This document shows positions 1 to 25,747 of a stretch of 35,354 nt of DNA, one piece after another. The translations under genes and the position numbers were made by a program. Source of the stretch: a virus; the UHGV virus genome UHGV-0125936, one strand, 5' to 3'. The notes under the pieces were generated by a model. The model made no database searches. It was not told the origin of the DNA and was given only the letters and a program-made list of their open reading frames with translations. The stretch's first letter is position 1. The number at the start of each line of letters is the position of its first letter.

Positions 1-3000
1 AACCGTAGTTCTCAAACGTACCGCCCTTATCCAGCCTCCACCCGACTGAGCCAGCGACATAGTTATTGGACTGGATGTAGTTGCCGATCTTGGCGTTGCT
101 GATGGTGCCATCACCTATCAGCGCGTCTCTGATGAACACCTGCCCGTTCTGAATAACGAAAGGAAGGGTCACCGTGGCTCCGGCCTGGTGCGTTACGGCG
201 AAGCGGTCAGCCAGGAAGATGACCTGTGACTGCATGCCGGATGGCGTGTTCTCGACGCCGATCCCCATCCCTGCGGCGTAATACTGTCCATTGCTGGCGA
301 CGCCAACCTTGATGTTATACATCGCTTTCAGATCACCATTAACGTTCGCTATGGCCTGAGCGTTGGTTGTGATGGCTGATGTGTGTCCGTTGACGGTCGC
401 CGTGATACCGTTTATCTGCGTGGCCGTGGCCTGCTGATAATCGGAGAACGTCTGGTTCAGGCTGTTGATGGATGCCTTGTTGCCGTTCACGTCAGTCTGC
501 AAACTCAGTAGCGAACGCGCCGTTGCCTCCTTCTCGTTGACGATCACCTCATCAATGCGGTCCAGCTGCGCGCTGTTACCGGCGACGGATGCAGACAGCG
601 TTTTGCGCGCGGCCACCTGCGCCAGGTTGCCCTGAATAATCGCGATAGCGGAGTTCTTCACTCCCCCCGTCATGCCGTCCACAGACACGCTGATATTATC
701 GATACGCTGACCCAGTGCGGTATCAGCAGTCGCCACTGTCTGCTCAAGTTCGTTCAGAGAAGAAGACACATCTCCGACCGTGCTCGACAGGTTTGTAACG
801 CTGGTCTGAACCTTCCCGATATCCTGGGCGTTTTTGGCGATTTCCTGCGCCTGTTGCGCCAGTTCGTCGTTGGCCTGTTTGATGTCGTCAGCCATGCCAG
901 CAATTTTTTCATTGCTGTCTACCGCGTTCTCGATCAGGTCTTTGAACGTATCGGAGCCTTTCATGTCCTCCAGGATTGCATCGGTGATGTCGGATACATC
1001 GATGCTGGCCTGCCCGCGCACAAAGTCTGTATACCCTGACTCGTTTCCGCTGCGGTCCACCAGCTGCGCGCGGTACCAGAAAATTTGCCCTGCCTTAAGG
1101 CCCATCTGCTGATACTTGCGCTGCGGATAGGGTACGTCTGCCAGCAGCATCGCATCGTCTTCCGTCCCGGTCAGGCTGTACTGAATTTCCGTCTTCAGCG
1201 TGTCGTCGGTGTTCGCCGGGAATCCCCAGCTCAGCTCGATACCGAAAACCACATTATCAGAAGCGATGAAGCCGACCGGTTTCGGCGGATTGCCCACTTT
1301 ACCCGTAAGATTTACTTCTGATGATGTCGCCCATACTGATGAAACGTCGCTGGCGTTCACCGCCCTGACACGGACCAGATAGCGACCCGAGTAGATGCCC
1401 TGCACTTCAAAGCCGAGAGAAGACGTTCGGGGCACACTAATCCAGTTGCCGCTGTCACGCCGCCATTCCGCCTCGTAAGCAACTGCACCCTGAACAGAAT
1501 CCCAGGCAACGCGCATAGTGGTAATCGCAATGTTCTGGTTAACCGTAGAGTAACTGTCTACGACAATATTTCCTGGGGGAGCCTGAACCCCTGGCGGAAT
1601 GACACTGACTGGCCGCTCGTCCAGTCTTGCGCCGGTATCAACAGCGGAATAGATATCAGGGTTGTAAGTCGTCCCGGTGACCTCGAAAGTACCGTCGTTG
1701 TTGTCCCGCGTTCCCGTAACACGGAAAAGCGCTATAAACAGATCGTCAGAGTCCACACCCCAGTTACATTCAGCCTCCGGCGTTTCGCTGTAGGGTGTGG
1801 TGACAGTGACTGTGTTTCCGTTAACGGCCTGGACCGTTCTGGCCTGAGCTGTGCCTGACGGAAGATTCAAAAACAGCCGGTTCCCGGCCTTCACATCAGC
1901 GGCTCGATCGAGGGTTATGTTGCGGCCGTTAACCGCACTCACCCTGCCACCGATAGTTCTTCCGGCCAGCTCGTTAGCTGCCACGCCGATCACCTCACCA
2001 ACGGGGGGAACGTCCATGCCCGTGCTGAAGGTCACCACCTCGCCGATACCGTTAGTGAGCAGCGCCCAGCGCCCCCGCCGGTTTGCCTCTGACTGCCTGG
2101 TGCAGCCGATCGCAGTCATTTCGAGCTGACGATAATCGAAGCGCATGGCCAGATCGTTATCGTAAACAGGCTCAGGCGTGTCTTTATAGTGGTTGGCTGG
2201 GTCTGACCAGTTCACCAGCGCGGCAGTGTTTCGGGTGGTTTCACTCGGATCCGCAAAGGTAAATTTTCCTTCAACAACGCTGGCGTGGTTATAGATGTGC
2301 CACACATCCCGTGGCATATCAGCCAGGACATACATCTTATTGTCGCCCCAGTACGTCATGCCGCGAAATATACCCGCCAGGTCACGAAGTACGGTCCAGG
2401 CGTCATTACGGTCCTGGATATAAACGTTGCAACGAAAACGAGGCTCCGTCCCGCTGCCGCCCTTGCCGTCTGGTACCAGTTGATCGCAATACTGGGCGAT
2501 GCGATAAAGTTCCCATTTGTCTATCTGAGTCGCATCGATTCTTTGACCCAGCCCGAAGCGCTCGTTCAGAATGATGTCGTAATAAATCCAGGCAGGGTTA
2601 TCCGTCCACGCCCATTTAAATACGCCCTCCCATGTACCAGAATAAGTGCGGGTTTCGGGATCATAAGTATCAGGTACACGGATGATTCGCCCTTTCGGAT
2701 TGCACACAACCTGAGGAATGCCATTAGGGAACTGCTTTGCGTCAAACTCTACATACAGCAGCGCTGTGTTAACGTAGCGAAGTTTGGCGTCAATAATTTC
2801 AGTAACGGCCACAACGCGCATGGTGTCGACGATATTCACGCTCGTGGAATCCGGCGTGATTCTGCGAACCCGCAACTGCCATCCAGTCGAGGCTTTCGGA
2901 AGATTGACGCGGTGACTGCGCTCATAAAGCGACGTGGTTTTGTCATCAACAGCACCGTTAACCACCGTTTCATACGGCCCGCCATCGACCGACAGATCGA

Positions 3001-3451
3001 TAGCATACTCGACGCGGGTGCCGACTTTATCACCGTTGTTTTTCTGGAGTAAAAGAGTTGGCCATCCCAGGCGAATTCGCAGCGCAGAGAGCTGCGTGTT
3101 GGATACCGCCCGAACATACGGCACAGCCTGTTTCAGCTCGTATGAAACCTGAAGTTCGTTTTCAATGCCGGGGAAGCCCTGAATGTAGTCCTGGTCCTGA
3201 GTACCGGAACGGAACTCATATTTCACATTATTGAAGTTATAACTTCCGTCGGCGTTCTGAAGAGGCGTGTACGAAGATGAGTCACCAAGAAAAATGTTTT
3301 TACCATCAAGCCCGCCAGCGAACTCACCCTCTCCAAGCGCAATCAGCACCTTTGCCCTTGCAATGGACTGAATGCTGTCCGGTGCTTCAACGGGTGTTCG
3401 GGTCTGATTGCTGCCACCTTTACCGCGGCCTTTGATGATCGTCGTCGTCAT
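1..3451 (-). CDS. J: Host specificity / central tail fibre protein J (partial; C-terminus beyond window)
   Basis: Open frame from ATG at 3451 to window edge (MTTTIIKGRG...); segments such as GTWEGVFKWAWTDNPAWIYYDI...YRIAQYCDQLVPDGKGGSGTEPRF resemble lambda J as recalled; follows I/K/L/M homologs. Confidence 0.85.
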   Translation of the reverse strand, partial: MTTTIIKGRGKGGSNQTRTPVEAPDSIQSIARAKVLIALGEGEFAGGLDGKNIFLGDSSSYTPLQNADGSYNFNNVKYEFRSGTQDQDYIQGFPGIENELQVSYELKQAVPYVRAVSNTQLSALRIRLGWPTLLLQKNNGDKVGTRVEYAIDLSVDGGPYETVVNGAVDDKTTSLYERSHRVNLPKASTGWQLRVRRITPDSTSVNIVDTMRVVAVTEIIDAKLRYVNTALLYVEFDAKQFPNGIPQVVCNPKGRIIRVPDTYDPETRTYSGTWEGVFKWAWTDNPAWIYYDIILNERFGLGQRIDATQIDKWELYRIAQYCDQLVPDGKGGSGTEPRFRCNVYIQDRNDAWTVLRDLAGIFRGMTYWGDNKMYVLADMPRDVWHIYNHASVVEGKFTFADPSETTRNTAALVNWSDPANHYKDTPEPVYDNDLAMRFDYRQLEMTAIGCTRQSEANRRGRWALLTNGIGEVVTFSTGMDVPPVGEVIGVAANELAGRTIGGRVSAVNGRNITLDRAADVKAGNRLFLNLPSGTAQARTVQAVNGNTVTVTTPYSETPEAECNWGVDSDDLFIALFRVTGTRDNNDGTFEVTGTTYNPDIYSAVDTGARLDERPVSVIPPGVQAPPGNIVVDSYSTVNQNIAITTMRVAWDSVQGAVAYEAEWRRDSGNWISVPRTSSLGFEVQGIYSGRYLVRVRAVNASDVSSVWATSSEVNLTGKVGNPPKPVGFIASDNVVFGIELSWGFPANTDDTLKTEIQYSLTGTEDDAMLLADVPYPQRKYQQMGLKAGQIFWYRAQLVDRSGNESGYTDFVRGQASIDVSDITDAILEDMKGSDTFKDLIENAVDSNEKIAGMADDIKQANDELAQQAQEIAKNAQDIGKVQTSVTNLSSTVGDVSSSLNELEQTVATADTALGQRIDNISVSVDGMTGGVKNSAIAIIQGNLAQVAARKTLSASVAGNSAQLDRIDEVIVNEKEATARSLLSLQTDVNGNKASINSLNQTFSDYQQATATQINGITATVNGHTSAITTNAQAIANVNGDLKAMYNIKVGVASNGQYYAAGMGIGVENTPSGMQSQVIFLADRFAVTHQAGATVTLPFVIQNGQVFIRDALIGDGTISNAKIGNYIQSNNYVAGSVGWRLDKGGTFENYG

Positions 3452-10123: not shown

Positions 10124-10567
10124 TCAGGAGCCAGACTCGATGTTTTCAGGCTTACCTTTCAGGCGCAGGGAGAACGTTGCCGCCACTACGCCGTTGGTAC
10201 CTGAAGACCAGGTGTGCTGGCGGATTTCAGCCAGGAACTTAAAGCCCTTGCCGGACGGGAAGATAACCTGGAAAGCGTAGGTCGTATCGTTGTCATAGGC
10301 CTCACGCAAGGCGTCCTGCGCCGGATTCTTGTAGAAGTTGCCGGACAGAGAGATTTCTGACGGAGAAGGCAGGCCGTTGATGTTCTCCTGCTCGGTAGAG
10401 CAAAGTGTTGTTACGTCGATATCCTGCTTCTGACCACCGGTGAACTGAATTTCTTTGATGGTGCAACTCAGATCGAGGAAGGTTGCGGAATCCATCGTTT
10501 CTTTGGTGGCTGGCAGGGAGGAAATAAGGATCTTCGTCAGCTGCGATTTTTCATAAAGTGCAGACAT
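10124..10567 (-). CDS. Major tail protein
   Basis: 147 aa; RBS AGGAGA; position immediately upstream of G/T chaperone. Confidence 0.65.
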   Translation of the reverse strand: MSALYEKSQLTKILISSLPATKETMDSATFLDLSCTIKEIQFTGGQKQDIDVTTLCSTEQENINGLPSPSEISLSGNFYKNPAQDALREAYDNDTTYAFQVIFPSGKGFKFLAEIRQHTWSSGTNGVVAATFSLRLKGKPENIESGS

Positions 10568-11420: not shown

Positions 11421-11755
11421 TTTTCAGCTCCCGTTTTGCAAAGGATTTCCAGACGAGTGCCGGTCGAATTTGCTACCGGAGGACCGATGATATTTAGCAC
11501 CTGGCCTTTATACGGCCCGCTTAGCACTTCCAGACGAGAAGAGGCGTTCAGGTCAGCCCTGAAGCGCATCCAGACGCGAATAGTTGCCTGCGCCGTCTCC
11601 GCGCCGCCTGACAGCTGCTCTCTGCCGCTGATCCCCTTCACCTCGGCAGAAATCGAGCTGCCACCTTTCCACGATTCAACCGGCTGGCCAGATGGATCAC
11701 GCGAGGTTGTGAAGGTGAGAATTTTTACCCGGTGCCTGAATCGTCCCGGTTCCAT
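11417..11755 (-). CDS. Head closure / head-tail adaptor protein
   Basis: 112 aa; synteny; overlapping stop/start with neighbours. Confidence 0.5.
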   Translation of the reverse strand: MEPGRFRHRVKILTFTTSRDPSGQPVESWKGGSSISAEVKGISGREQLSGGAETAQATIRVWMRFRADLNASSRLEVLSGPYKGQVLNIIGPPVANSTGTRLEILCKTGAEK

Positions 11756-12081
11756 CAGGAGCCCTCCTCTGATTCGGCTTTACCGCGCCAGTTGCGATGA
11801 ATGAACATCATGCGTTCGGCGGCTGCATTCTCATAAAGCTGCACTTCGCTTTGTGCCGTCCGGTGTTCAAACATGTCTGCAAAGACAAGCAGAACGGCGC
11901 CCTTAACGGCGGCAGGAATATCAGCCGCAACCTTCCATGCTGGTTCATCGCACCAGCGTATGCAGTAGTCAAAAGCGGCCTGGGCGTACAGCGTGATCAG
12001 CTCGTCCCTGTCGTCTTCCTCAAACTCAATCTGCTGCTTAAACAGACTGAGGGAAATTACATCCAGAACATCTATCGCCAT
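11755..12081 (-). CDS. Head-tail connector protein (gp6-like)
   Basis: 108 aa acidic protein immediately downstream of major capsid gene. Confidence 0.5.
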   Translation of the reverse strand: MAIDVLDVISLSLFKQQIEFEEDDRDELITLYAQAAFDYCIRWCDEPAWKVAADIPAAVKGAVLLVFADMFEHRTAQSEVQLYENAAAERMMFIHRNWRGKAESEEGS

Positions 12082-12114: not shown

Positions 12115-13272
12115 TCATGAGCCAGAAGAGAAGCTGCCCTTGATGATTGCCGTCGGGCGATAGTGCGCCAGCGCCAGGCGTTCTTCGCACAGGATGGTCA
12201 GCATGTTTTTCACGAAGTTATCGCGGTCTTCACGGCTGACTTCCACGGTGGCATCCATGCGATCCCACACCTGTGAGGCCATATCAAAACCGCCTACGGT
12301 AAAGGTACCGGCGGCCTGCGCCTTAGTCGGAACCACTGGCAGGCCCCACATGATGTTGCTGGTAAACGCCTGAGGACCACCGAAGAGGTAACGACCTTCG
12401 TTGTCTTTCAGCAGCGCGATGTTGTGCCAGTCGCGCGGGTTCAGGACGATACCGGAAGCGCTAAACTCAGACTCGGTCACCTGGTAAATAGCATGAGCGA
12501 TGATGTCAGCGCGGGTGTCACCGGAAACGTTCAGCGAGGTGTCGTAGGCGGTAGCCACTTTGTTCAGCCCCTCCAGGTTATCCCCGGTGCCGTCGCCATT
12601 CAGCAGCTGGTTTTCCTCCTTCAGTGCCAGACCATACATCAGACGGCCGTTGACGTATGACTGCAACATTGGTGCATCGTCCATAACCTGACGTGACGCC
12701 TGTACCCAGTGCGCGATGGTTTTCACGTTCGCGGTCTGCTTGCTGAAGGTGATATCCGATTCTGGCTTAAGCGCTTTCTCAGCCACCACATCGGCGTTAT
12801 TGGTAAACACCTCTTCACGCACATATTCCAGAGCGTTGCTGGAAATGCGGCCCTGAGCCAGCAGGTCACGGATGGTCAGACGGCGCAGGCCAGGCATGAT
12901 GATGCCAGGCATCTGCATAGGTTGGATCAGTGATCCAGCAGAATCAGCGTCACTGCCGAGAGACTTGTTAAACGTCTTCGCGTCGAAGGTGCCCTGTTTA
13001 CCGTCCCATGACTTAATAAGCTCTTCAGCAGCCCGTTCAGAGAAGGATTTCTTCTCACCAGGATTCTCAGCGCCGGATGCCAGTTTCTGCTCCAGATCGA
13101 AGAGACGAGTGCCGGATTTGGTCAGCTCTTCCTGTACTTTCATCAGATCGGACTGCAACTGTTTGGAAACCTGGCCCGTGCTTTCGATTTCTGCTTTCTG
13201 CGCATCGAAAAGCTGGGTCATTTTCTGCTGGGATTCTTCGATAGCTTTTTGAATGAGAGCGAGTTCAGACAT
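12115..13272 (-). CDS. Major capsid protein, HK97 fold
   Basis: 385 aa; N-terminal coiled-coil delta-like region then capsid domain; follows prohead protease. Confidence 0.85.
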   Translation of the reverse strand: MSELALIQKAIEESQQKMTQLFDAQKAEIESTGQVSKQLQSDLMKVQEELTKSGTRLFDLEQKLASGAENPGEKKSFSERAAEELIKSWDGKQGTFDAKTFNKSLGSDADSAGSLIQPMQMPGIIMPGLRRLTIRDLLAQGRISSNALEYVREEVFTNNADVVAEKALKPESDITFSKQTANVKTIAHWVQASRQVMDDAPMLQSYVNGRLMYGLALKEENQLLNGDGTGDNLEGLNKVATAYDTSLNVSGDTRADIIAHAIYQVTESEFSASGIVLNPRDWHNIALLKDNEGRYLFGGPQAFTSNIMWGLPVVPTKAQAAGTFTVGGFDMASQVWDRMDATVEVSREDRDNFVKNMLTILCEERLALAHYRPTAIIKGSFSSGS

Positions 13273-17433: not shown

Positions 17434-17637
17434 CTATGCCGAATGTTTGTCTACCTGTTCGAGTTTCTGATCGCCTTTCCGATGCCCGGAGACAACATGA
17501 CCTGAAATGGTCACCGTCGGCATCTCCTGCCCTACAGCGTGCGAGAACTGAATGGATGTCACGTCCTTCATCTCCACGCCATCAATCACCAGGCGAACGA
17601 ATTTTCCATTGCGGTATTCAATGCTGAGGTCTTTCAT
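17434..17637 (-). CDS. Hypothetical small protein translationally coupled to HNH gene
   Basis: 67-aa ORF whose start overlaps the HNH stop. Confidence 0.3.
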   Translation of the reverse strand: MKDLSIEYRNGKFVRLVIDGVEMKDVTSIQFSHAVGQEMPTVTISGHVVSGHRKGDQKLEQVDKHSA

Positions 17638-17990
17638 TACGTGCTCCAGTGAGACGCAGGATCGAGCGGGTAGCCATTGGCATCACAGCCTATTACCGCG
17701 CCGCTCTTCTCCATCCTCTGTTTCGTTGAGTCATGATGCGCTTTACACAGTGGCTGCCAGTTCTCTTTACTCCAGAACAGGAGCTGTGCTTTCGATATGG
17801 CCAGCGGGTTACCTGACTTAAGCGCATCTTTGAGTTTGTGGGGCTCGATATGGTCAACCACCGTTGCTGGGGTAATCCGCCCCTGCTGCTCGCACATCAC
17901 ACATAGTGGGTGCTGCTGCAGGAAACGCAGACGGGCCTTATCCCATCGGCTGCCATATACGCGGGGCTCTTTGTTCATGACAGTCTCCAT
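17637..17990 (-). CDS. HNH endonuclease (terminase-associated)
   Basis: CVMCEQQGR...VDHIEPH...CKAHHDSTKQ HNH zinc-finger motif; located just upstream of cos/TerS as in HK97 gp74. Confidence 0.85.
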   Translation of the reverse strand: METVMNKEPRVYGSRWDKARLRFLQQHPLCVMCEQQGRITPATVVDHIEPHKLKDALKSGNPLAISKAQLLFWSKENWQPLCKAHHDSTKQRMEKSGAVIGCDANGYPLDPASHWST

Positions 17991-18034
17991 GCGTAACGGT
18001 GCTCAAAGTGAGGAAGGATGGGATAAACAACAGC

Positions 18035-18615
18035 TTATGCCAGCCTCCATGCGCGGCGGCGTTCTGTCCTCGGCTCGTTGTCAGGGTGACGCTCAACCGT
18101 CTGGAGGTCAGCGTGATCCACCAGCGAGTAACACGGATAAATCACCCGACCACCGAATGCCTCACCGACAGCGTAATCAGCTGCCAGCGTTTTGTTCCAT
18201 GTACTGAGCATGCGCGCCAAACTTCCCCGAGGAGGGCTATAACATACGCCGTGAATCAGTTTGCTTAATACGATGTGGTCACCACAGACGCGATCCGCAT
18301 CCACCAGCATTCCGGCAATCTCTTTCTGATACTGCGGCGGTCGGCCGGTACCGAGATAAAAGCTCAGCATGTCGTCAGGGAAGCGCACCAGCCATTCAGT
18401 TACCTTATCGGTGAAGCCCTGCACAGGAAGCGCGTCTTCTTCCAACACCACTACCCGGCAAGGTTGCTCAGCAGCCCATTCGATAGCGCGACGATGATTC
18501 CAGTTCGCGCCGCGGTTACCGTCATCAATAAGCAGATGAGCATCCAGCAGCGCGGCAAGTCGTTGCGCATGACCTATGCGAGAGTGATGGCCAACCACAA
18601 CAAACTTAATCTCTG
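18035..18615 (-). CDS. Putative nucleotide-sugar transferase-like (GT-A-like) protein
   Basis: 193 aa from ATGATG at 18615 (RBS GAGG upstream); KFVVVGHHSRIGHAQRLAALLDAHLLIDDG...VVVLEEDALP resembles GT-A/GT25-type N-terminus by eye only. Confidence 0.35.
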
Positions 18616-19115
18616 TCTGCATCATTATGGGTAAACACCTCATTACGGGCTCGTCGTGCAACCTCAGCAGCTTCATGCTTACAGTCAAAGTAACCAAGGT
18701 GATGCCGGGTACCATGCTCTTTATAATGAGCACACCATTTCTTCATATCCCGATTCCAAGTAACTCCACGAAATCCTGACGCAGAGGAGTGACGTTGCCT
18801 GTTTTCAGCGTTTTGTTTTGGTGTTGCTATTCGAAGATGTTTTGGGTTGACGCAAAGAGTGTTATGGCAGGTATGGTCAATCAAATATCCGTCTGGGATA
18901 GGTCCGTTGCTAAGTTCCCATGAAGCTCTGTGTGCAAGAATCATTTTTCCAGGCCCGCCAGCAGTAACTCCAGCTTTCAAATGCCCGTAAAATAAATACC
19001 TCCCACCGCCTATAGGACTCTTTCTCTTAGCCGCATTCCAGATCCAGCATTCATCTGGAGAAGCAACAACGACCTTTTCCCAGAATCTTTCACTGAAAGT
19101 TCTGGTCTTTTTCAT
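18606..19115 (-). CDS. HNH homing endonuclease with AP2 DNA-binding domain
   Basis: LIDHTCHNTLCVNPKHL HNH_3-like motif; C-terminal SGFRGVTWNRDMKKWCAHY...GYFDCKHEAA AP2-like. Confidence 0.75.
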   Translation of the reverse strand: MKKTRTFSERFWEKVVVASPDECWIWNAAKRKSPIGGGRYLFYGHLKAGVTAGGPGKMILAHRASWELSNGPIPDGYLIDHTCHNTLCVNPKHLRIATPKQNAENRQRHSSASGFRGVTWNRDMKKWCAHYKEHGTRHHLGYFDCKHEAAEVARRARNEVFTHNDADRD

Positions 19116-19121
19116 ATCAGC

Positions 19122-20579
19122 CTATTTGTGTTTAAACCAGGCGCATTCTTTGCCAATACCATCAGTCTTAAAAACTGTGTGGATACGCGGGCCGGTGACA
19201 ATGCGATCGCCAAGCGATTTAGCAACAATGCCAAAAGCGATCATATCCCCCACCGCGGCGCCAGCCTGTTCTTTCTTCCAGAATCGATAACTTTCGATCC
19301 GGTAGTAAAGACGGATGATGCCGTGAGCGAACGCCATTACATCAGCGCGGGTGCCACCCAGCAGGCCAGCGTTAAGCATCACATCGCCGCGGTGCGCTTC
19401 AATGAATTCCTGATAGATACGCTCAGGATGATTCTGTTTCGCCCAGGTGTCGGCGTATGTCTTCGGTTCAGAACCGACGTAAACATTCCCGGGCTGCATT
19501 TCTTCCCACGGTGCGCGGAGCATTTCGACATCGGTACCATCAGTACACCAGACGAACCGGTATTCAGGGTGATCTCGCAGGTGCTGCCAGATATGCAGCC
19601 AGCGCCGGAAGTAGACATTCATCTTCACCTCAGGAACGCGGTACAACTCAACATCTGCCGGTGGCGTCTGCAGTTCATCCACCAGCGCGATACGTCCACA
19701 CTGCCGGAGTGATGCGGCCCATTTAGCCAGCATCTCAGGCGAGGCCGCCATTTTCGTACCGCGCTGCGGGTCAGGCTGGCTGGTGAGCAACGTTGTGATT
19801 ACCACGTCGCGCTGCTTCCGGTATTCAACGTAACCGGTAAAGCCGGTATCACGTCGTTCGTTGTGGATCTTCACGTTACGTTCCACCAGCGCCTGGCGGT
19901 CGGGCCTCGGCACTGAACGCTCTACGGCCTCATGCTCATCGAGAGAATGGATCAGCTTTTCTGAACCGACGACATCAGCGTACGCCCACGTAGTCAGTCC
20001 TGCGTTATGGATGCGCAAGGCGAGGTCGCTGTGCTCGTACATGCCGCGACCATAAACCGGATCGAATCCGCCTACCTTCTCGATGGCGCTGCGGTGGTAA
20101 TAAAGCATCACGCCGCGCTGCCCGGTGTACGCCACATGCTGATCGTCACGGTAAAGCACCGAAAGGTCATTCAGCTTGTTCGTGCCAGCAAGATCGAGAA
20201 ACTGGTAAGCCAGGTGCGGCTCTGGTGATTCGATGTAAGGGAGGTGCCAGTTATCAGCGATAGGCCAGGCGTCATCATCCCATAAAAACAGATGCTCACA
20301 CCCGGCATCCATCAGGGCTGTCAGGCTGGCGTTCTTCGACGCAACAATGCCGAGTGATGTTTCATGGCGAAGCAGCTGCACGCCGTGTGGAACTACCGCT
20401 GCAGGTTTTGAACCATCATCGACTACCACCACCAGCGCACCGGCGGGAAGATGCTTCATGTGCTGTTCGAGTGCTCGCTTTAAAACGTCTGCGCGCTGAT
20501 GCGTCGAAATGGCAATGCCGATCCGTGATGAAACGACGCTGGCGGGAGCGTATGGGACACCATCAATAGTGACCTGCAT
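19122..20579 (-). CDS. Two-domain glycosyltransferase (N-terminal family-2-like GT-A domain; C-terminal second transferase-like domain)
   Basis: VVVVDDGS and LWDDDAW (DXD) motifs in N-terminal half; C-terminal half has CTDGTDV and NAGLLGG; RBS GGGAGG. Confidence 0.6.
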   Translation of the reverse strand: MQVTIDGVPYAPASVVSSRIGIAISTHQRADVLKRALEQHMKHLPAGALVVVVDDGSKPAAVVPHGVQLLRHETSLGIVASKNASLTALMDAGCEHLFLWDDDAWPIADNWHLPYIESPEPHLAYQFLDLAGTNKLNDLSVLYRDDQHVAYTGQRGVMLYYHRSAIEKVGGFDPVYGRGMYEHSDLALRIHNAGLTTWAYADVVGSEKLIHSLDEHEAVERSVPRPDRQALVERNVKIHNERRDTGFTGYVEYRKQRDVVITTLLTSQPDPQRGTKMAASPEMLAKWAASLRQCGRIALVDELQTPPADVELYRVPEVKMNVYFRRWLHIWQHLRDHPEYRFVWCTDGTDVEMLRAPWEEMQPGNVYVGSEPKTYADTWAKQNHPERIYQEFIEAHRGDVMLNAGLLGGTRADVMAFAHGIIRLYYRIESYRFWKKEQAGAAVGDMIAFGIVAKSLGDRIVTGPRIHTVFKTDGIGKECAWFKHK

Positions 20580-20590
20580 AAAACCTCCCG

Positions 20591-21469
20591 TCAGATTCCT
20601 CGCGACCGTGTATTCCAGAGGATGCCGCCTGGCTTGAGCGCATTGCGAAGAGCATCGTTCACCGCTTCGTGCATCGCCTGTTGCAAGCCAACTACTGAAG
20701 CTGTTTGCGCATCAATCTTTGCCTGGAGGGCTGCGAACAAATCGCTTTCGCGTACGGCGGAGATAATGGCTTCGCACATCTCATCATTGAGGCTGGTTTT
20801 GGTGGCATTATTACCATCAGCGGGATTAGCCTTATCATGACTAATTGCTCCAGGGAAGCCACCAAAAGACAAACCAACATTGAATGTCGTCTTTTCATTA
20901 TTGCTGGCTGATTGAGCGGCTTCATGCACCTTATAGCGATCAGCCATAAACTCAACGTTGCTCTGGCCATCTTCAACTCCGATGGTCATGCCAGCTGCGT
21001 ACCGTTTGCCACCATAATCCACGTTCATCTTCACGCTGTAGTTCGTAGACAATGTGCCATTGCCGATCAGCGCCTCGTGGATGTAAGCCTTGCCGGTTTT
21101 ATCAACAAACCAGCCACCTTTAAGGCCATGAAGTGCGCAGCTGTTACGGATCTCTTCGTCCAGCGCCTCAATAATCTCTTCGGTATCGACAGAAGAAACC
21201 CCTTCGATCCAGTCACCGGCTCGCCAATCTCGTGCTGAGCCATCTTCTGCAATTGGACGCAGGCGCACCTGCAATCTCTCACCAGCTTTGAGGCCGGAAA
21301 TAAGGCATACGGTAGCTGGCCAGAAGATGCGTTTTTTCATAAGTCGGCCATCTTCATGAAGGCATTGCAGTTCTAGCACCGCGCAGCCACCCGGCCATTT
21401 CCATTCGACGTCCACACCAAAAGGTTTGGGAGTGGTTTTTACGTAAGGGACGATTGAAGGTTCTGACAT
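20591..21469 (-). CDS. FN3-like + J-fibre-motif protein (paralog of a distal segment of the tail-tip J protein)
   Basis: 293 aa from MSEPSIV (RBS AAGGAAAA); KRYAAGMTIGVEDGQSNVEFMADRYKV and IHEALIGNGTLS match J in this window (QYYAAGMGIGVEN...FLADRFAV; IRDALIGDGTIS); N-terminal beta-rich FN3-like region. Confidence 0.5.
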   Translation of the reverse strand: MSEPSIVPYVKTTPKPFGVDVEWKWPGGCAVLELQCLHEDGRLMKKRIFWPATVCLISGLKAGERLQVRLRPIAEDGSARDWRAGDWIEGVSSVDTEEIIEALDEEIRNSCALHGLKGGWFVDKTGKAYIHEALIGNGTLSTNYSVKMNVDYGGKRYAAGMTIGVEDGQSNVEFMADRYKVHEAAQSASNNEKTTFNVGLSFGGFPGAISHDKANPADGNNATKTSLNDEMCEAIISAVRESDLFAALQAKIDAQTASVVGLQQAMHEAVNDALRNALKPGGILWNTRSRGI

Positions 21470-21729: not shown

Positions 21730-22194
21730 ATGATCACCAAAGTAAAAATCAAGTTTATTTCCCCTATTGATGGATCGGTATCAGATACCCCCACGGAGCA
21801 TGCAATTCCCGTAGTTCCATTGACAGTATGGCCAAGTAGCTCAAAAGATATAAACGTTTATAAACCAAATGGATTGAAGGCTGGTGCCTACGCACTTATA
21901 GATACCGGAGCAGATATTTGCTATGTGGATTCAGACTTTGCTGACGATTTAAAACTCCCAATCGCGGAAAAAACAACTGTGAGCGGAGCCACCTCAACAA
22001 TAGAAACTACAGTTCGGCATGCGGTAATATCGTTCACTGAGGACGAAAGAGTTTTTTCAACAGAATTGACTTCAGTGCCATTGGTAAGTAACGGGAGAAA
22101 ATTCCAGGTCGTTTTCGGAATGCAACTAATTAAAATGGGCGCCCTTACGATGGATTTTTCCAATCAAGTATTTGAGTTAACATTTTTTAACTAA
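21730..22194 (+). CDS. Retropepsin-like (clan AA) aspartic protease, moron on opposite strand
   Basis: ALIDTGAD active-site motif and downstream VVFGMQLIKMGALTMDF flap-like motif; RBS AAGGA; AT-rich relative to flanks. Confidence 0.65.
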   Translation: MITKVKIKFISPIDGSVSDTPTEHAIPVVPLTVWPSSSKDINVYKPNGLKAGAYALIDTGADICYVDSDFADDLKLPIAEKTTVSGATSTIETTVRHAVISFTEDERVFSTELTSVPLVSNGRKFQVVFGMQLIKMGALTMDFSNQVFELTFFN

Positions 22195-22432: not shown

Positions 22433-22690
22433 CTAACAGTCGTCATCTGGACGTGCTACAGCTCGACATGCGGCCATGCATGCGCGCTTCATATCGAGCT
22501 CTGCCTGGCGTATCCACTCAACAGCTTCCCAGTCGTGAGGAGTGCGTTGTACATCACCTACATGCTCACGCAGCAACTTAATAAACTGGCGGCTGAGATC
22601 CTTAAACTGGTTCATCTTGCCGATTTCACCGTAAGAGAGTTCGCGGTAGCCCTTAACGGTGCTTCCGTCCTGTGGTTTAGCTTCGCTCAT
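22433..22690 (-). CDS. Hypothetical protein downstream of spanins
   Basis: 85 aa from MSEAKPQ; no recognisable motif. Confidence 0.35.
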   Translation of the reverse strand: MSEAKPQDGSTVKGYRELSYGEIGKMNQFKDLSRQFIKLLREHVGDVQRTPHDWEAVEWIRQAELDMKRACMAACRAVARPDDDC

Positions 22691-22756
22691 CGGATTCTCT
22701 ATTTTTGGTGGGTATGGAAACTTACCCGCGATTGAATGTGAACACAGCAGCATGCT

Positions 22757-24823: not shown

Positions 24824-24848
24824 ATAAAAAAACCCGCAACGTGGCGGG
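24824..24848 (-). terminator. tR'-like terminator downstream of pR'
   Basis: Stem cccgc/gcggg with 6-nt loop followed by 7-U tract on - strand, about 45-70 nt downstream of candidate pR'. Confidence 0.55.
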
Positions 24849-24892
24849 CTTTTAGAGGTTAATTATCTACAGGCGTTATACTCCATAATCAG

Positions 24893-24922
24893 AAGCATAC
24901 AGGACAGTTTTATGCAAAGTCA
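24893..24922 (-). promoter_or_regulatory. Candidate late promoter pR' (-35 TTGACT, 18-nt spacer, -10 TATGCT) with qut-type region
   Basis: Hexamers read on - strand immediately downstream of Q stop. Confidence 0.4.
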
Positions 24923-24964
24923 ACACTAACGTGCAAAAAAGTGTCGCCATTTGCTCCGATCATA

Positions 24965-25747
24965 TTAATAAGTTGTCGCCTTCTCAAACTCTACTGCCGC
25001 GTGACGCTCCCCCTGGCGCAGCGTGTCCACCAGCATTTCATAAAAGGGTTTCCAGTTGCGTGACCATGAGGACTGATGGAGGTCCGGGAGACGCTTCAGA
25101 ATGGCACGGTGTACCGTCGCCGAGGAGATTGCAGAGAAGCCATTACCAGAGCAACGTTCACACGTTTTGAAAACCGGTGCGCCGCGGTCTTTAGTCGCTT
25201 TGCGGTCCAACACTTCTCCTTTACCGCCACACCTGCACCGGGCAAGGATCACTTTCTTTCCTCCGCATGTTTCGCAAACTCTTTTCACCAGCTCATTTTT
25301 AATCTTTGGGGCCACTACTTCGGCACCGTCGGCGTCGAAAATACCAGGATGTTTAACCACATCCTCATTCCCGGAGATAAACCCGGTACCGCTGCAACTG
25401 TGGCATGTCACGCTGGTAGCCGCCGAACGGGAGTAATCAGCAAAGGCAAATTGCGCCAACATCTGCATGCACCATCCAAAATGCCCACCAGCTGCTTTGC
25501 GAACATTCTTTGGTGCCGTTTCCATCGCGTAACGAGCCAGCGCCTGAACTGCGAGCTGTTCATCTGTTTTGCTGATGCCGGCCTTGCCAAAGAAAGCAGC
25601 CAGGCCGAAGCGCGCACGGCTGCTGGTGGTGCCAATCGCCGCCATTACATCTGTTCCTGTAAGGCGGTCCGGAGAAGTTCCCTTCACGTCATCGCTGATG
25701 TGCATTCCCTGAGGACTAAAATGTTTGAGTGACGCTTCCAGTTTCAT
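24965..25747 (-). CDS. Q: Late antiterminator Q (phage 82/933W-like Q family)
   Basis: LTGTDVMAAIG, LAQFAFADYSRSAAT, multiple CxxCxGxG zinc-finger motifs, SWSRNWKPFYEMLV, matching recalled Q-family pattern; position between replication and lysis. Confidence 0.7.
   Translation of the reverse strand: MKLEASLKHFSPQGMHISDDVKGTSPDRLTGTDVMAAIGTTSSRARFGLAAFFGKAGISKTDEQLAVQALARYAMETAPKNVRKAAGGHFGWCMQMLAQFAFADYSRSAATSVTCHSCSGTGFISGNEDVVKHPGIFDADGAEVVAPKIKNELVKRVCETCGGKKVILARCRCGGKGEVLDRKATKDRGAPVFKTCERCSGNGFSAISSATVHRAILKRLPDLHQSSWSRNWKPFYEMLVDTLRQGERHAAVEFEKATTY

Follow-up and report, generated by a model that had tools for sequence, protein, structure and literature searches.

A putative late virion glycosylation system with C-terminal Gly-Ser acceptors in an HK97-like enterobacterial prophage

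What would two glycosyltransferases (GTs) modify when their genes lie between the lysis and packaging genes of an HK97-like prophage? The question is raised by the virus genome UHGV-0125936, a stretch of 35,354 nucleotides that we refer to as the window. It carries an HK97-like (Hendrixvirinae-type) prophage whose genes are read on the minus strand and whose nearest protein relatives belong to the Enterobacter cloacae complex. A preliminary description, made from the letters of this DNA alone, recorded four minus-strand genes at 18035-21469 and gave their function as unknown. All four open reading frames (ORFs) are present and intact (lengths in amino acids, aa):

18035-18625, minus strand: GT196, a minimal GT-A glycosyltransferase of 196 aa (phrog_854, 2e-70).
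18606-19115, minus strand: a free-standing HNH-AP2 endonuclease of 169 aa (Pfam HNH_3, 1.9e-14, 53.4 bits; AP2, 1.4e-8, 35.3 bits; both above cut-off).
19122-20579, minus strand: GT485, a tandem GT-A glycosyltransferase of 485 aa (phrog_1579 'glycosyltransferase', 3e-252).
20591-21469, minus strand: a J-fragment ('mini-J') protein of 292 aa from its ATG (Pfam Phage_Tail_Tip PF09327, 1.8e-10; phrog_13555, 5e-114).

We predict, with a probability of roughly 0.7, that GT485 and GT196 form a phage-encoded O-glycosylation system that would act late, in the cytoplasm, on the C-terminal Gly-Ser of virion proteins. The preliminary description had raised glycosylation of a virion protein among its options, and of these it is the best supported, both by counterparts in mycobacteriophages and by the Gly-Ser endings described below. 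The receptor-binding or fibre target proposed at the same time is not supported; the proteins predicted to be modified are the major capsid protein, the tail tube and, possibly, the gp6-like connector.

The assignment of GT485 is based on PHROGs, a structure model and homologues; Pfam gave generic GT-A similarity only, with GT2 at 19.7 bits, below the cut-off. Its AlphaFold model (predicted local distance difference test, pLDDT, 95.8) contains two GT-A domains, in agreement with the two-domain enzyme of 485 aa that had been described: an N domain at about residues 18-254 with DDGS and DDD motifs, and a C domain at about 255-485 with DPQRG and D347-x-x-D350. The acidic motifs (DD at 54-55, DDD at 101-103, and D347/D350) are kept across 100 homologues that are 30-55% identical. 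The model of GT196 (pLDDT 91) has a GT-A fold, and its Foldseek matches are mimivirus R655, GnT-I, POMGnT1 and ppGalNAc-T2. Its metal-site motif is E62-x-D64, with both acidic residues invariant in 28 sequences, and Arg16 and Arg190 are invariant in its alignment. The GT-A-like nature of this protein had been noted correctly, at a length of 193 aa that we revise to 196, from the ATGATG start at 18625 that is also used by homologues of 196 aa and that lies inside the 3’ end of the HNH-AP2 gene. Metal-site motifs are intact in both GTs, which are soluble GT-A enzymes. A hydropathy scan saw no transmembrane segment in either, the maximum 19-residue values being 1.32 and 0.92 for the two GTs versus 2.64 for the holin.

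Solved structures offer a general likeness. The best Foldseek matches of GT485 in the PDB are PmHS2 (6e-12), K4CP and COLGALT1, which likewise hold two GT-A domains in a single chain; the TM-score is about 0.3, the identity about 11% and the domain arrangement different, and a polymerase role for GT485 is unsupported. When GT485, GT196 and mini-J were searched by sequence against solved structures, the GTs matched only chance entries (APOBEC3G, proteasome).

The relatives that bear on function come from phages of mycobacteria. Aligned over 192 aa, GT196 and Che8 gp110 are 31.8% identical (E 9e-21); the identity is 31% both to Corndog gp38 (195 aa, E 8e-15) and to Girr gp102. Motifs common to GT196, gp110 and gp38 (LEDDAxP, SLYLG, SLVDHxD and RRAWR) are conserved along the entire length. 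A tblastn search of phage genomes with GT196 returned 716 records, of which 659 are mycobacteriophages; matches are typically placed at the far right end of Cluster F genomes. GT485 is 41.9% identical to Girr gp100 over 485 aa (E 9e-129), with full-length matches at 42-44% identity in several hundred mycobacteriophage records. Che8 itself differs in having two separate GTs, gp108 and gp109, which are not specifically related to GT485; as candidate relatives they were rejected, a profile search having given generic GT-A similarity only. The true counterpart of GT485 is the GT of about 478 aa found in other Cluster F phages.

Gene order is shared as well. Che8 ends with gp108-110 (GTs), gp111 and gp112 (HNH); Girr ends with gp100 (GT), gp101, gp102 (GT) and gp103 (HNH); and prophiGD22-1 has a GT, two small genes, an HNH gene and terS. 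The order common to the window and the Cluster F mycobacteriophages is GT, GT, HNH, cos, terminase. GT196 is orthologous to gp110, gp38 and gp102, and GT485 to Girr gp100; the two form a conserved two-gene core made of full-length homologues of the Cluster F pair. The Che8- and Girr-type cassettes resemble that of the window in gene order, in late expression and in the Gly-Ser endings of capsid and tube proteins. They differ in that the window system belongs to a Gram-negative enterobacterial host, has a capsid of the HK97 gp5 type and includes a gp6-like connector that also bears the Gly-Ser ending; the Corndog cassette (gp35-38) has a methyltransferase that the window cassette lacks. Judged by sequence, the window cassette is the enterobacterial counterpart of a mycobacteriophage system that has already been described.

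What is known of that system is consistent with virion glycosylation. According to PMC12363180, which cites Freeman et al. 2023 (Cell Host Microbe), proteins bearing glycans have been identified in the phages Che8, Corndog and Myrna, and the two glycosyltransferases essential for glycosylating the capsid are Che8 gp110 and Corndog gp38; the mycobacteriophage glycan coat is also reported there to protect particles from antibodies. Glycans covalently bound to the Che8 capsid protein are reported in PMC11256854. The preliminary description had considered that the cassette might turn out to be a conserved module of characterised function, and in part it has: the GT pair is conserved, and its counterparts Che8 gp110 and Corndog gp38 have been tied to capsid glycosylation. 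The locus is therefore less novel than the earlier wording of an unknown function implied.

Within enterobacterial phages the pair is widespread. HK542, Fostie, E. coli UMNK88, ENT39118 and ECP1 all carry GT485 and GT196 directly upstream of a gp74-type HNH gene, and hundreds of prophages in Enterobacter, Citrobacter, Cronobacter and Klebsiella contain the pair. The full pair is present in two of 5426 complete E. coli genomes (UMNK88 and ETEC1749), which, set against the abundant protein matches elsewhere, indicates that the cassette is rare in E. coli prophages and common in neighbouring genera. Homologues of both GTs are also encoded by jumbo phages of Klebsiella and Serratia (L169, which is the 299-kb Serratia phage KpZh_LPS_45, and H112, which is KpYy_2_45), at 42% identity for GT196 and 55% for GT485.

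The C-termini of the virion proteins offer a candidate acceptor. Three of the 32 genes in the window encode proteins that end in Gly-Ser:

12115-13272, minus strand: major capsid protein of the HK97 gp5 type (Pfam Phage_capsid, 1.7e-56), ending ...FSSGS; a predicted target.
11755-12081, minus strand: gp6-like head-tail connector (Pfam Phage_connect_1), ending ...SEEGS; a possible third target.
10124-10567, minus strand: tail tube protein (Pfam tail tube families), ending ...IESGS; a predicted target.

The same endings recur in other phages that carry the GTs, as seen when capsid and tube proteins are set beside those of two controls that lack them:

Che8, GTs present: capsid ...NKTGS, tube ...YSDGS.
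Corndog, GTs present: capsid ...PLVGS, tube ...KGDS (an exception).
Pringar, GTs present: capsid ...LPQGS, tube ...GFGGS.
prophiGD22-1, GTs present: capsid ...NRAGS, tube ...RIAGS.
Window prophage, GTs present: capsid ...FSSGS, tube ...IESGS.
L5, control without GTs: capsid ...DATEA, tube ...EVPEG.
E. coli ABWA45 prophage, control without GTs: capsid ...IIMG, tube ...TVTIS.

Among the structural proteins examined in the GT-carrying mycobacteriophages, none besides capsid and tube ends in Gly-Ser. A survey of 80 loci retrieved with GT196 as the query gave the same picture on a larger scale. Every one of 47 capsid proteins ends in Gly-Ser, across two architectures and including two protease-capsid fusions, as do 39 of 41 tail tubes, drawn from three Pfam tube families, and all 31 gp6-like connectors; the neighbouring head-tail proteins in these loci are never Gly-Ser-terminated. 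Positions -5 to -3 before the Gly-Ser are free to vary (IESGS, YASGS, IDPGS, ANPGS, TAAGS). The terminal codons vary too (GGC TCA, GGT AGC, GGC AGC, GGT TCC and others), and this synonymous variety shows that it is the protein which is under selection, not a ribosome-binding site overlapping its end. An origin of the ending as a by-product of ribosome binding was rejected, since the codons come from both serine families and include several for glycine, and the distance to the next start differs. As far as could be checked, the rule of a Gly-Ser C-terminus is a new observation, and so is the way it switches with GT status.

A few proteins outside the predicted targets have the same ending. Lysis-region ORFs upstream of the GT genes in three loci (L042 2823-3173, L052 6642-6992 and L062 6806-7105) have C-termini that resemble the window i-spanin, with ...RPGGS where the window version has ...PGGD, and one portal (L025 13274-14551) ends ...NNGS where the window portal ends ...NDGA. 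These endings are probably due to chance.

For the tail tube, the ending tracks the presence of the GTs. In a sample of loci centred on the major capsid protein plus one E. coli prophage, tubes from GT-carrying loci end in Gly-Ser in 41 cases and otherwise in four, and none of six tubes from GT-less loci do so (Fisher p = 1.2e-5). The switch can be followed inside a single family: TTP_11 tubes of GT-carrying phages end ...WIPKEQPGS, and those of the GT-less phages HK022, HK140 and mEpX2 end ...WVPKVVTP. GT status could be scored in 55 loci, of which 52 carry the GTs in a sample biased towards relatives of the window, so that the GT-less laboratory phages look like the minority state. One of the GT-less loci, L133 (IMGVR_UViG_2663762948_000001), encodes a capsid protein 96% identical to that of the window that ends ...TFSAD, the only capsid in the set to have lost Gly-Ser, next to a tube of Ig type. 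Comparison of L011, L075, L133 and L179 with the window distinguishes two tube forms, a short one ending in Gly-Ser that goes with the GT cassette, and an Ig-type one of 234 aa, ending ...TLTIS or ...TLTVN, that is mostly found without it. It may be that a glycan and an Ig domain are alternative decorations of the tail-tube surface.

Several observations weigh against a glycosylation signal. The compared loci are related to each other, so that the Fisher test overstates their independence and the statistics are indicative only. The Corndog tube lacks the ending although the GTs are present, and so do the tubes of the four GT-carrying loci counted above, those inspected bearing an extra Ig-type extension at the C-terminus. 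Capsid and connector keep Gly-Ser in the GT-less phages HK022, HK140 and mEpX2 and in a PEC389 prophage, and the capsid ending is kept in two of the three GT-less loci classified within the HK97-like phages, a count of three loci only. The capsid and connector endings are therefore non-discriminating and might serve another purpose.

Taken together with the mycobacteriophage precedent, these endings suggest how the system might work. Late in infection, GT196, the predicted initiating enzyme, would recognise capsid, tube and perhaps connector subunits in the cytoplasm by their free C-terminal -Gly-Ser and transfer a first sugar from a nucleotide sugar onto the terminal serine. Its invariant Arg16 and Arg190 are candidates to hold the terminal carboxylate. 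The two domains of GT485, a predicted glycan-extending enzyme, would then add further sugars, and glycans covering head and tail of the finished particle would shield or modify its surface. In HK97-fold shell proteins, encapsulins among them, the C-terminus faces outwards, and the C-terminal Ig domains of lambda-type tubes are exposed on the exterior; with outward C-termini on both, the glycans would sit on the particle surface. In the mycobacteriophages, glycans reportedly lie at the C-terminus of capsid and tail-tube subunits. It is tempting to speculate further, at slightly less than even odds, that GT196 reads nothing but a free C-terminal Gly-Ser, that with the tandem GT it coats most wild HK97-like enterobacterial phages, head and tail, with glycans, that the two-gene system is common to phages of Actinobacteria and Proteobacteria, and that the glycan tag and the Ig-like domain of the tube are alternative decorations.

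The timing of expression follows from the place of the genes in the prophage. The gene order starts with integrase and repressor, followed by replication genes and a Q-like antiterminator. After Q come the promoter and hairpin, holin, GH19 endolysin, spanins, the cassette region, the gp74-like HNH gene, terS and terL, and then portal, protease, major capsid protein, head-tail genes, tail tube, tape measure and J. The features that bear on expression are:

24965-25747: Q-like antiterminator.
24923-24894, minus strand: late promoter-like site, downstream of the Q gene (consensus scan).
24853-24828, minus strand: strong terminator-like hairpin, downstream of the Q gene (consensus scan).
17637-17990, minus strand: gp74-like terminase-associated HNH endonuclease (Pfam HNH, 2.5e-5; phrog_2323, 6.5e-53), annotated in mEp390 as 'similar to Gp74 HK97'.

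Homologous promoter and terminator features carry annotation in HK542, and the promoter and hairpin at 24828-24923 are likely to be a PR'/tR' unit that drives the entire late operon, cassette included. Consensus scans found three promoter-like sites where chance alone predicts 8.3, and 14 terminator-like sites where it predicts 9.3; those inside the cassette are weak and do not rise above chance. The GT genes are members of the Q-dependent late operon and have no promoter or terminator of their own, which bears out the late-operon membership claimed in the preliminary description. In HK542, Fostie, E. coli UMNK88, ENT39118 and ECP1 the stop of GT485 overlaps the start of GT196 (ATGGTGGAAACACAAGTGA), and the stop of GT196 overlaps the start of gp74, so that the three genes are translationally coupled, as in most relatives.

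This arrangement helps to weigh other roles for the enzymes. Cargo genes are known to occur between lysis genes and cos, an Acb2-like gene adjoins the cassette, and the best solved-structure matches of GT485 include the polysaccharide synthases PmHS2 and K4CP, all of which would suit enzymes of lysogenic conversion that sugar the lipopolysaccharide core, O-antigen or another surface polysaccharide of the host and thereby change its serotype or block superinfection. The preliminary description had kept such an envelope modification as its alternative. We set it aside as distinctly unlikely, on the grounds that the enzymes are soluble, lack their own promoter and belong to a cassette shared with mycobacteriophages. 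As the GTs are coupled to the late HNH gene and have neither a promoter nor a terminator to themselves, they would be produced only within minutes of lysis and be missing from the lysogen; both proteins lack membrane segments, and neither a flippase nor a membrane partner is present; and their orthologues serve phages of mycobacteria, whose envelope is entirely different. The gtrABC modules of P22-like and Shigella phages also encode phage GTs, but these need membrane proteins and expression in the lysogen, and here we saw no membrane-embedded GT by hydropathy and detected no promoter of the cassette's own. Nor would a modified envelope account for the Gly-Ser pattern. That pattern would be equally unexplained if the GTs instead glycosylated genome bases before packaging to evade restriction, a reading suggested by the adjoining packaging genes (HNH, terminase) and by the phage GT-A enzymes that glycosylate 5-hydroxymethylcytosine, documented in bioRxiv 10.1101/2023.12.21.572611. 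DNA hypermodification of this kind is highly improbable at this locus. The T-even and 5mYOX DNA glucosyltransferases, phage GTs as well, need a hydroxymethyl-base pathway, and Pfam and PHROGs scans found no cytosine methyltransferase, TET/5mYOX dioxygenase, hydroxymethylase or deazaguanine gene among the window ORFs scanned, the prophage beyond J lying outside the window. The lack of a DNA-modification partner had already been remarked on, and the homologous mycobacteriophage enzymes are tied to protein glycosylation in PMC12363180.

The acceptors could also be proteins of the host. Several structural neighbours of GT196 are protein-glycosylating GT-A enzymes, and with an anti-CBASS-type Acb2/Tad1-hairpin gene nearby it is conceivable that the pair modifies host proteins for takeover or anti-defence, in the manner of GT-A toxins and effectors. 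We regard this as very unlikely: expression is late, the cassette is conserved across Enterobacter and Mycobacterium hosts, and the acceptor-like motif sits on the phage's own most abundant virion proteins, a fact that modification of host proteins leaves unexplained. Another unlikely option is that Gly-Ser has nothing to do with the GTs, being for example an assembly or stability signal of the HK97 type, and that the true substrate lies elsewhere on the virion, such as the J-fragment fibre. Its strength is that capsid and connector keep Gly-Ser in GT-less phages, and a fibre target is possible for the few phages that carry mini-J. However, unrelated capsid and tube families in GT-carrying mycobacteriophages end in Gly-Ser and those of the GT-less L5 do not, tube endings switch with GT status inside a single tube family, and mini-J is absent from 70 of 76 GT loci and has no Gly-Ser ending of its own. 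Glycosylation of virion proteins at C-terminal Gly-Ser accommodates these observations best.

Viruses that glycosylate their own capsid are not without precedent. The chlorovirus PBCV-1 encodes multi-domain GT-A enzymes (e.g. A064R) that glycosylate its capsid; these are likewise soluble and work in the cytoplasm, where they build a glycan on the major capsid protein of the virus without the machinery of the host. The glycans of PBCV-1 are N-linked at atypical internal sites, in contrast to the C-terminal Gly-Ser proposed here. HK97 is the textbook model of capsid assembly, and to our knowledge enterobacterial tailed phages are generally assumed to be unglycosylated; in the literature searched we found no report of glycosylated virions for HK97-like or other enterobacterial phages. 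Wild HK97 relatives probably build sugar-coated particles, and if our proposal is true, most of those in Enterobacter, Citrobacter, Cronobacter and Klebsiella would do so, with a bearing on antibody recognition, behaviour in gut and mucus, and phage therapy, as argued for mycobacteriophages. The cassette-carrying laboratory phages HK542, mEp390 and ECP1 grow on E. coli K-12, which makes the idea directly testable. The conserved Gly-Ser amounts to a concrete acceptor-site hypothesis and possibly to a minimal tag for cytoplasmic protein glycosylation; if the hypothesis is true, it would be a genetically portable glyco-tag of two residues, functional in the E. coli cytoplasm. The case also shows an entire functional module common to phages of two bacterial phyla.

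The remaining two genes of the cassette appear to be separate from this module. The mini-J protein consists of an FN3-like domain, a Phage_Tail_Tip segment and a helical C-terminal part of about 100 aa, so that the J and FN3 content noted in the preliminary description stands, with the length of 293 aa corrected to 292. The resident J gene lies at the other end of the late region:

1-3451, minus strand: resident J gene, at least 1150 aa visible, extending past the left edge of the window.

BLASTP aligns mini-J residues 4-116 to residues 723-839 of the resident J, its last FN3-like part, and residues 137-189 to residues 1038-1095. The identity of 22-45% argues against a recent duplicate. The last FN3-like domain and the Phage_Tail_Tip segment are what mini-J has in common with J of lambda and HK97 and with the F-type pyocin fibre, and its N-terminal 115 aa or so also align to the F2-pyocin tail fibre (2.9e-8). 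Examined as a possible J orthologue, it lacks the N-terminal tail-tip hub of about 700 aa and the long coiled coil; compared with J of lambda and HK97 the missing hub part comes to about 720 aa, and the C-terminal 100 aa or so are its own. Mini-J shares domains with J and is not its orthologue.

The preliminary description had linked the GTs to this tail-fibre paralog, a link that fails. Mini-J accompanies the GT pair in only six of 76 related loci, and it does not end in Gly-Ser; as a partner or target of the GTs it is ruled out on both counts. A homologue of 263 aa occurs by itself in the tail module of the E. coli ABWA45 prophage (L004 5982-6773), between the tail tube and tail chaperone genes, where RefSeq labels it 'phage tail tip fiber protein'. 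That prophage is unrelated to the window prophage and has a P22-type capsid, and the location suggests that mini-J is a mobile accessory tail component. We conclude that it is a separate mobile late gene, a passenger outside the GT module, and most probably an accessory virion fibre.

The HNH-AP2 gene had been described as a homing endonuclease that splits the GT genes, and both its domains and the empty junctions of relatives agree with this. In the window, an insert of about 500 bp with the HNH-AP2 gene sits exactly in the overlap of GT485 and GT196, and its 3’ end gives GT196 a new ATGATG start; neither GT gene is broken. In HK542, Fostie and UMNK88 this junction has no such insert, and mEp390 and AsXd-1 have different endonuclease genes there. 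Across 76 IMG/VR loci with both GTs, the overlap is uninterrupted in 42 and broken in the other 34 by inserts of 165-1118 bp, which fall into many size classes and in 16 cases encode an HNH-AP2-like ORF. Presence and absence of an insert, together with the variety of inserts, is the pattern expected of a homing-endonuclease hotspot, and the HNH-AP2 gene is best read as a selfish homing endonuclease inserted at such a site. It resembles the HNH_3/AP2 class in its domains, its intergenic position, its presence/absence polymorphism and the alternative endonuclease genes at the site; unlike that class, its insert supplies, at the 3’ end, the start codon region of the downstream GT gene.

The next junction has also been altered, as comparison with HK542 reveals:

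17975-18052, minus strand: duplicated junction of the GT196 stop and the gp74 start.

An insertion of 60 nt parts the GT196 stop from the gp74 start and is accompanied by imperfect direct repeats of 18 nt (18052-18035 and 17992-17975, 15 of 18 positions identical). The two genes overlap by 15 nt in 36 loci, six loci have the same +45 spacing as the window, and about nine have an insert of 350-400 nt. The varied inserts suggest a second insertion hotspot.

On its upstream side the cassette is bordered by two further genes:

22433-22753, minus strand: Acb2/Tad1-hairpin protein of 106 aa (Pfam 2.1e-10, 41 bits against a cut-off of 27).
21730-22194, plus strand: Asp-protease-like ORF of 154 aa (Asp_protease_2, 6.9e-6, weak yet above threshold).

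Both intervene between the cassette and the spanins, so the earlier placement of the four genes between spanins and terminase-associated HNH gene is right on the HNH side and wrong as to direct adjacency to the spanins. The Acb2/Tad1-hairpin protein is a candidate cyclic-nucleotide sponge of the anti-CBASS or anti-Thoeris type. The Asp-protease-like ORF lies in a stretch of lower GC content (0.42-0.46 versus about 0.52-0.56 nearby), has no PHROG match and is possibly an inserted cargo or defence gene.

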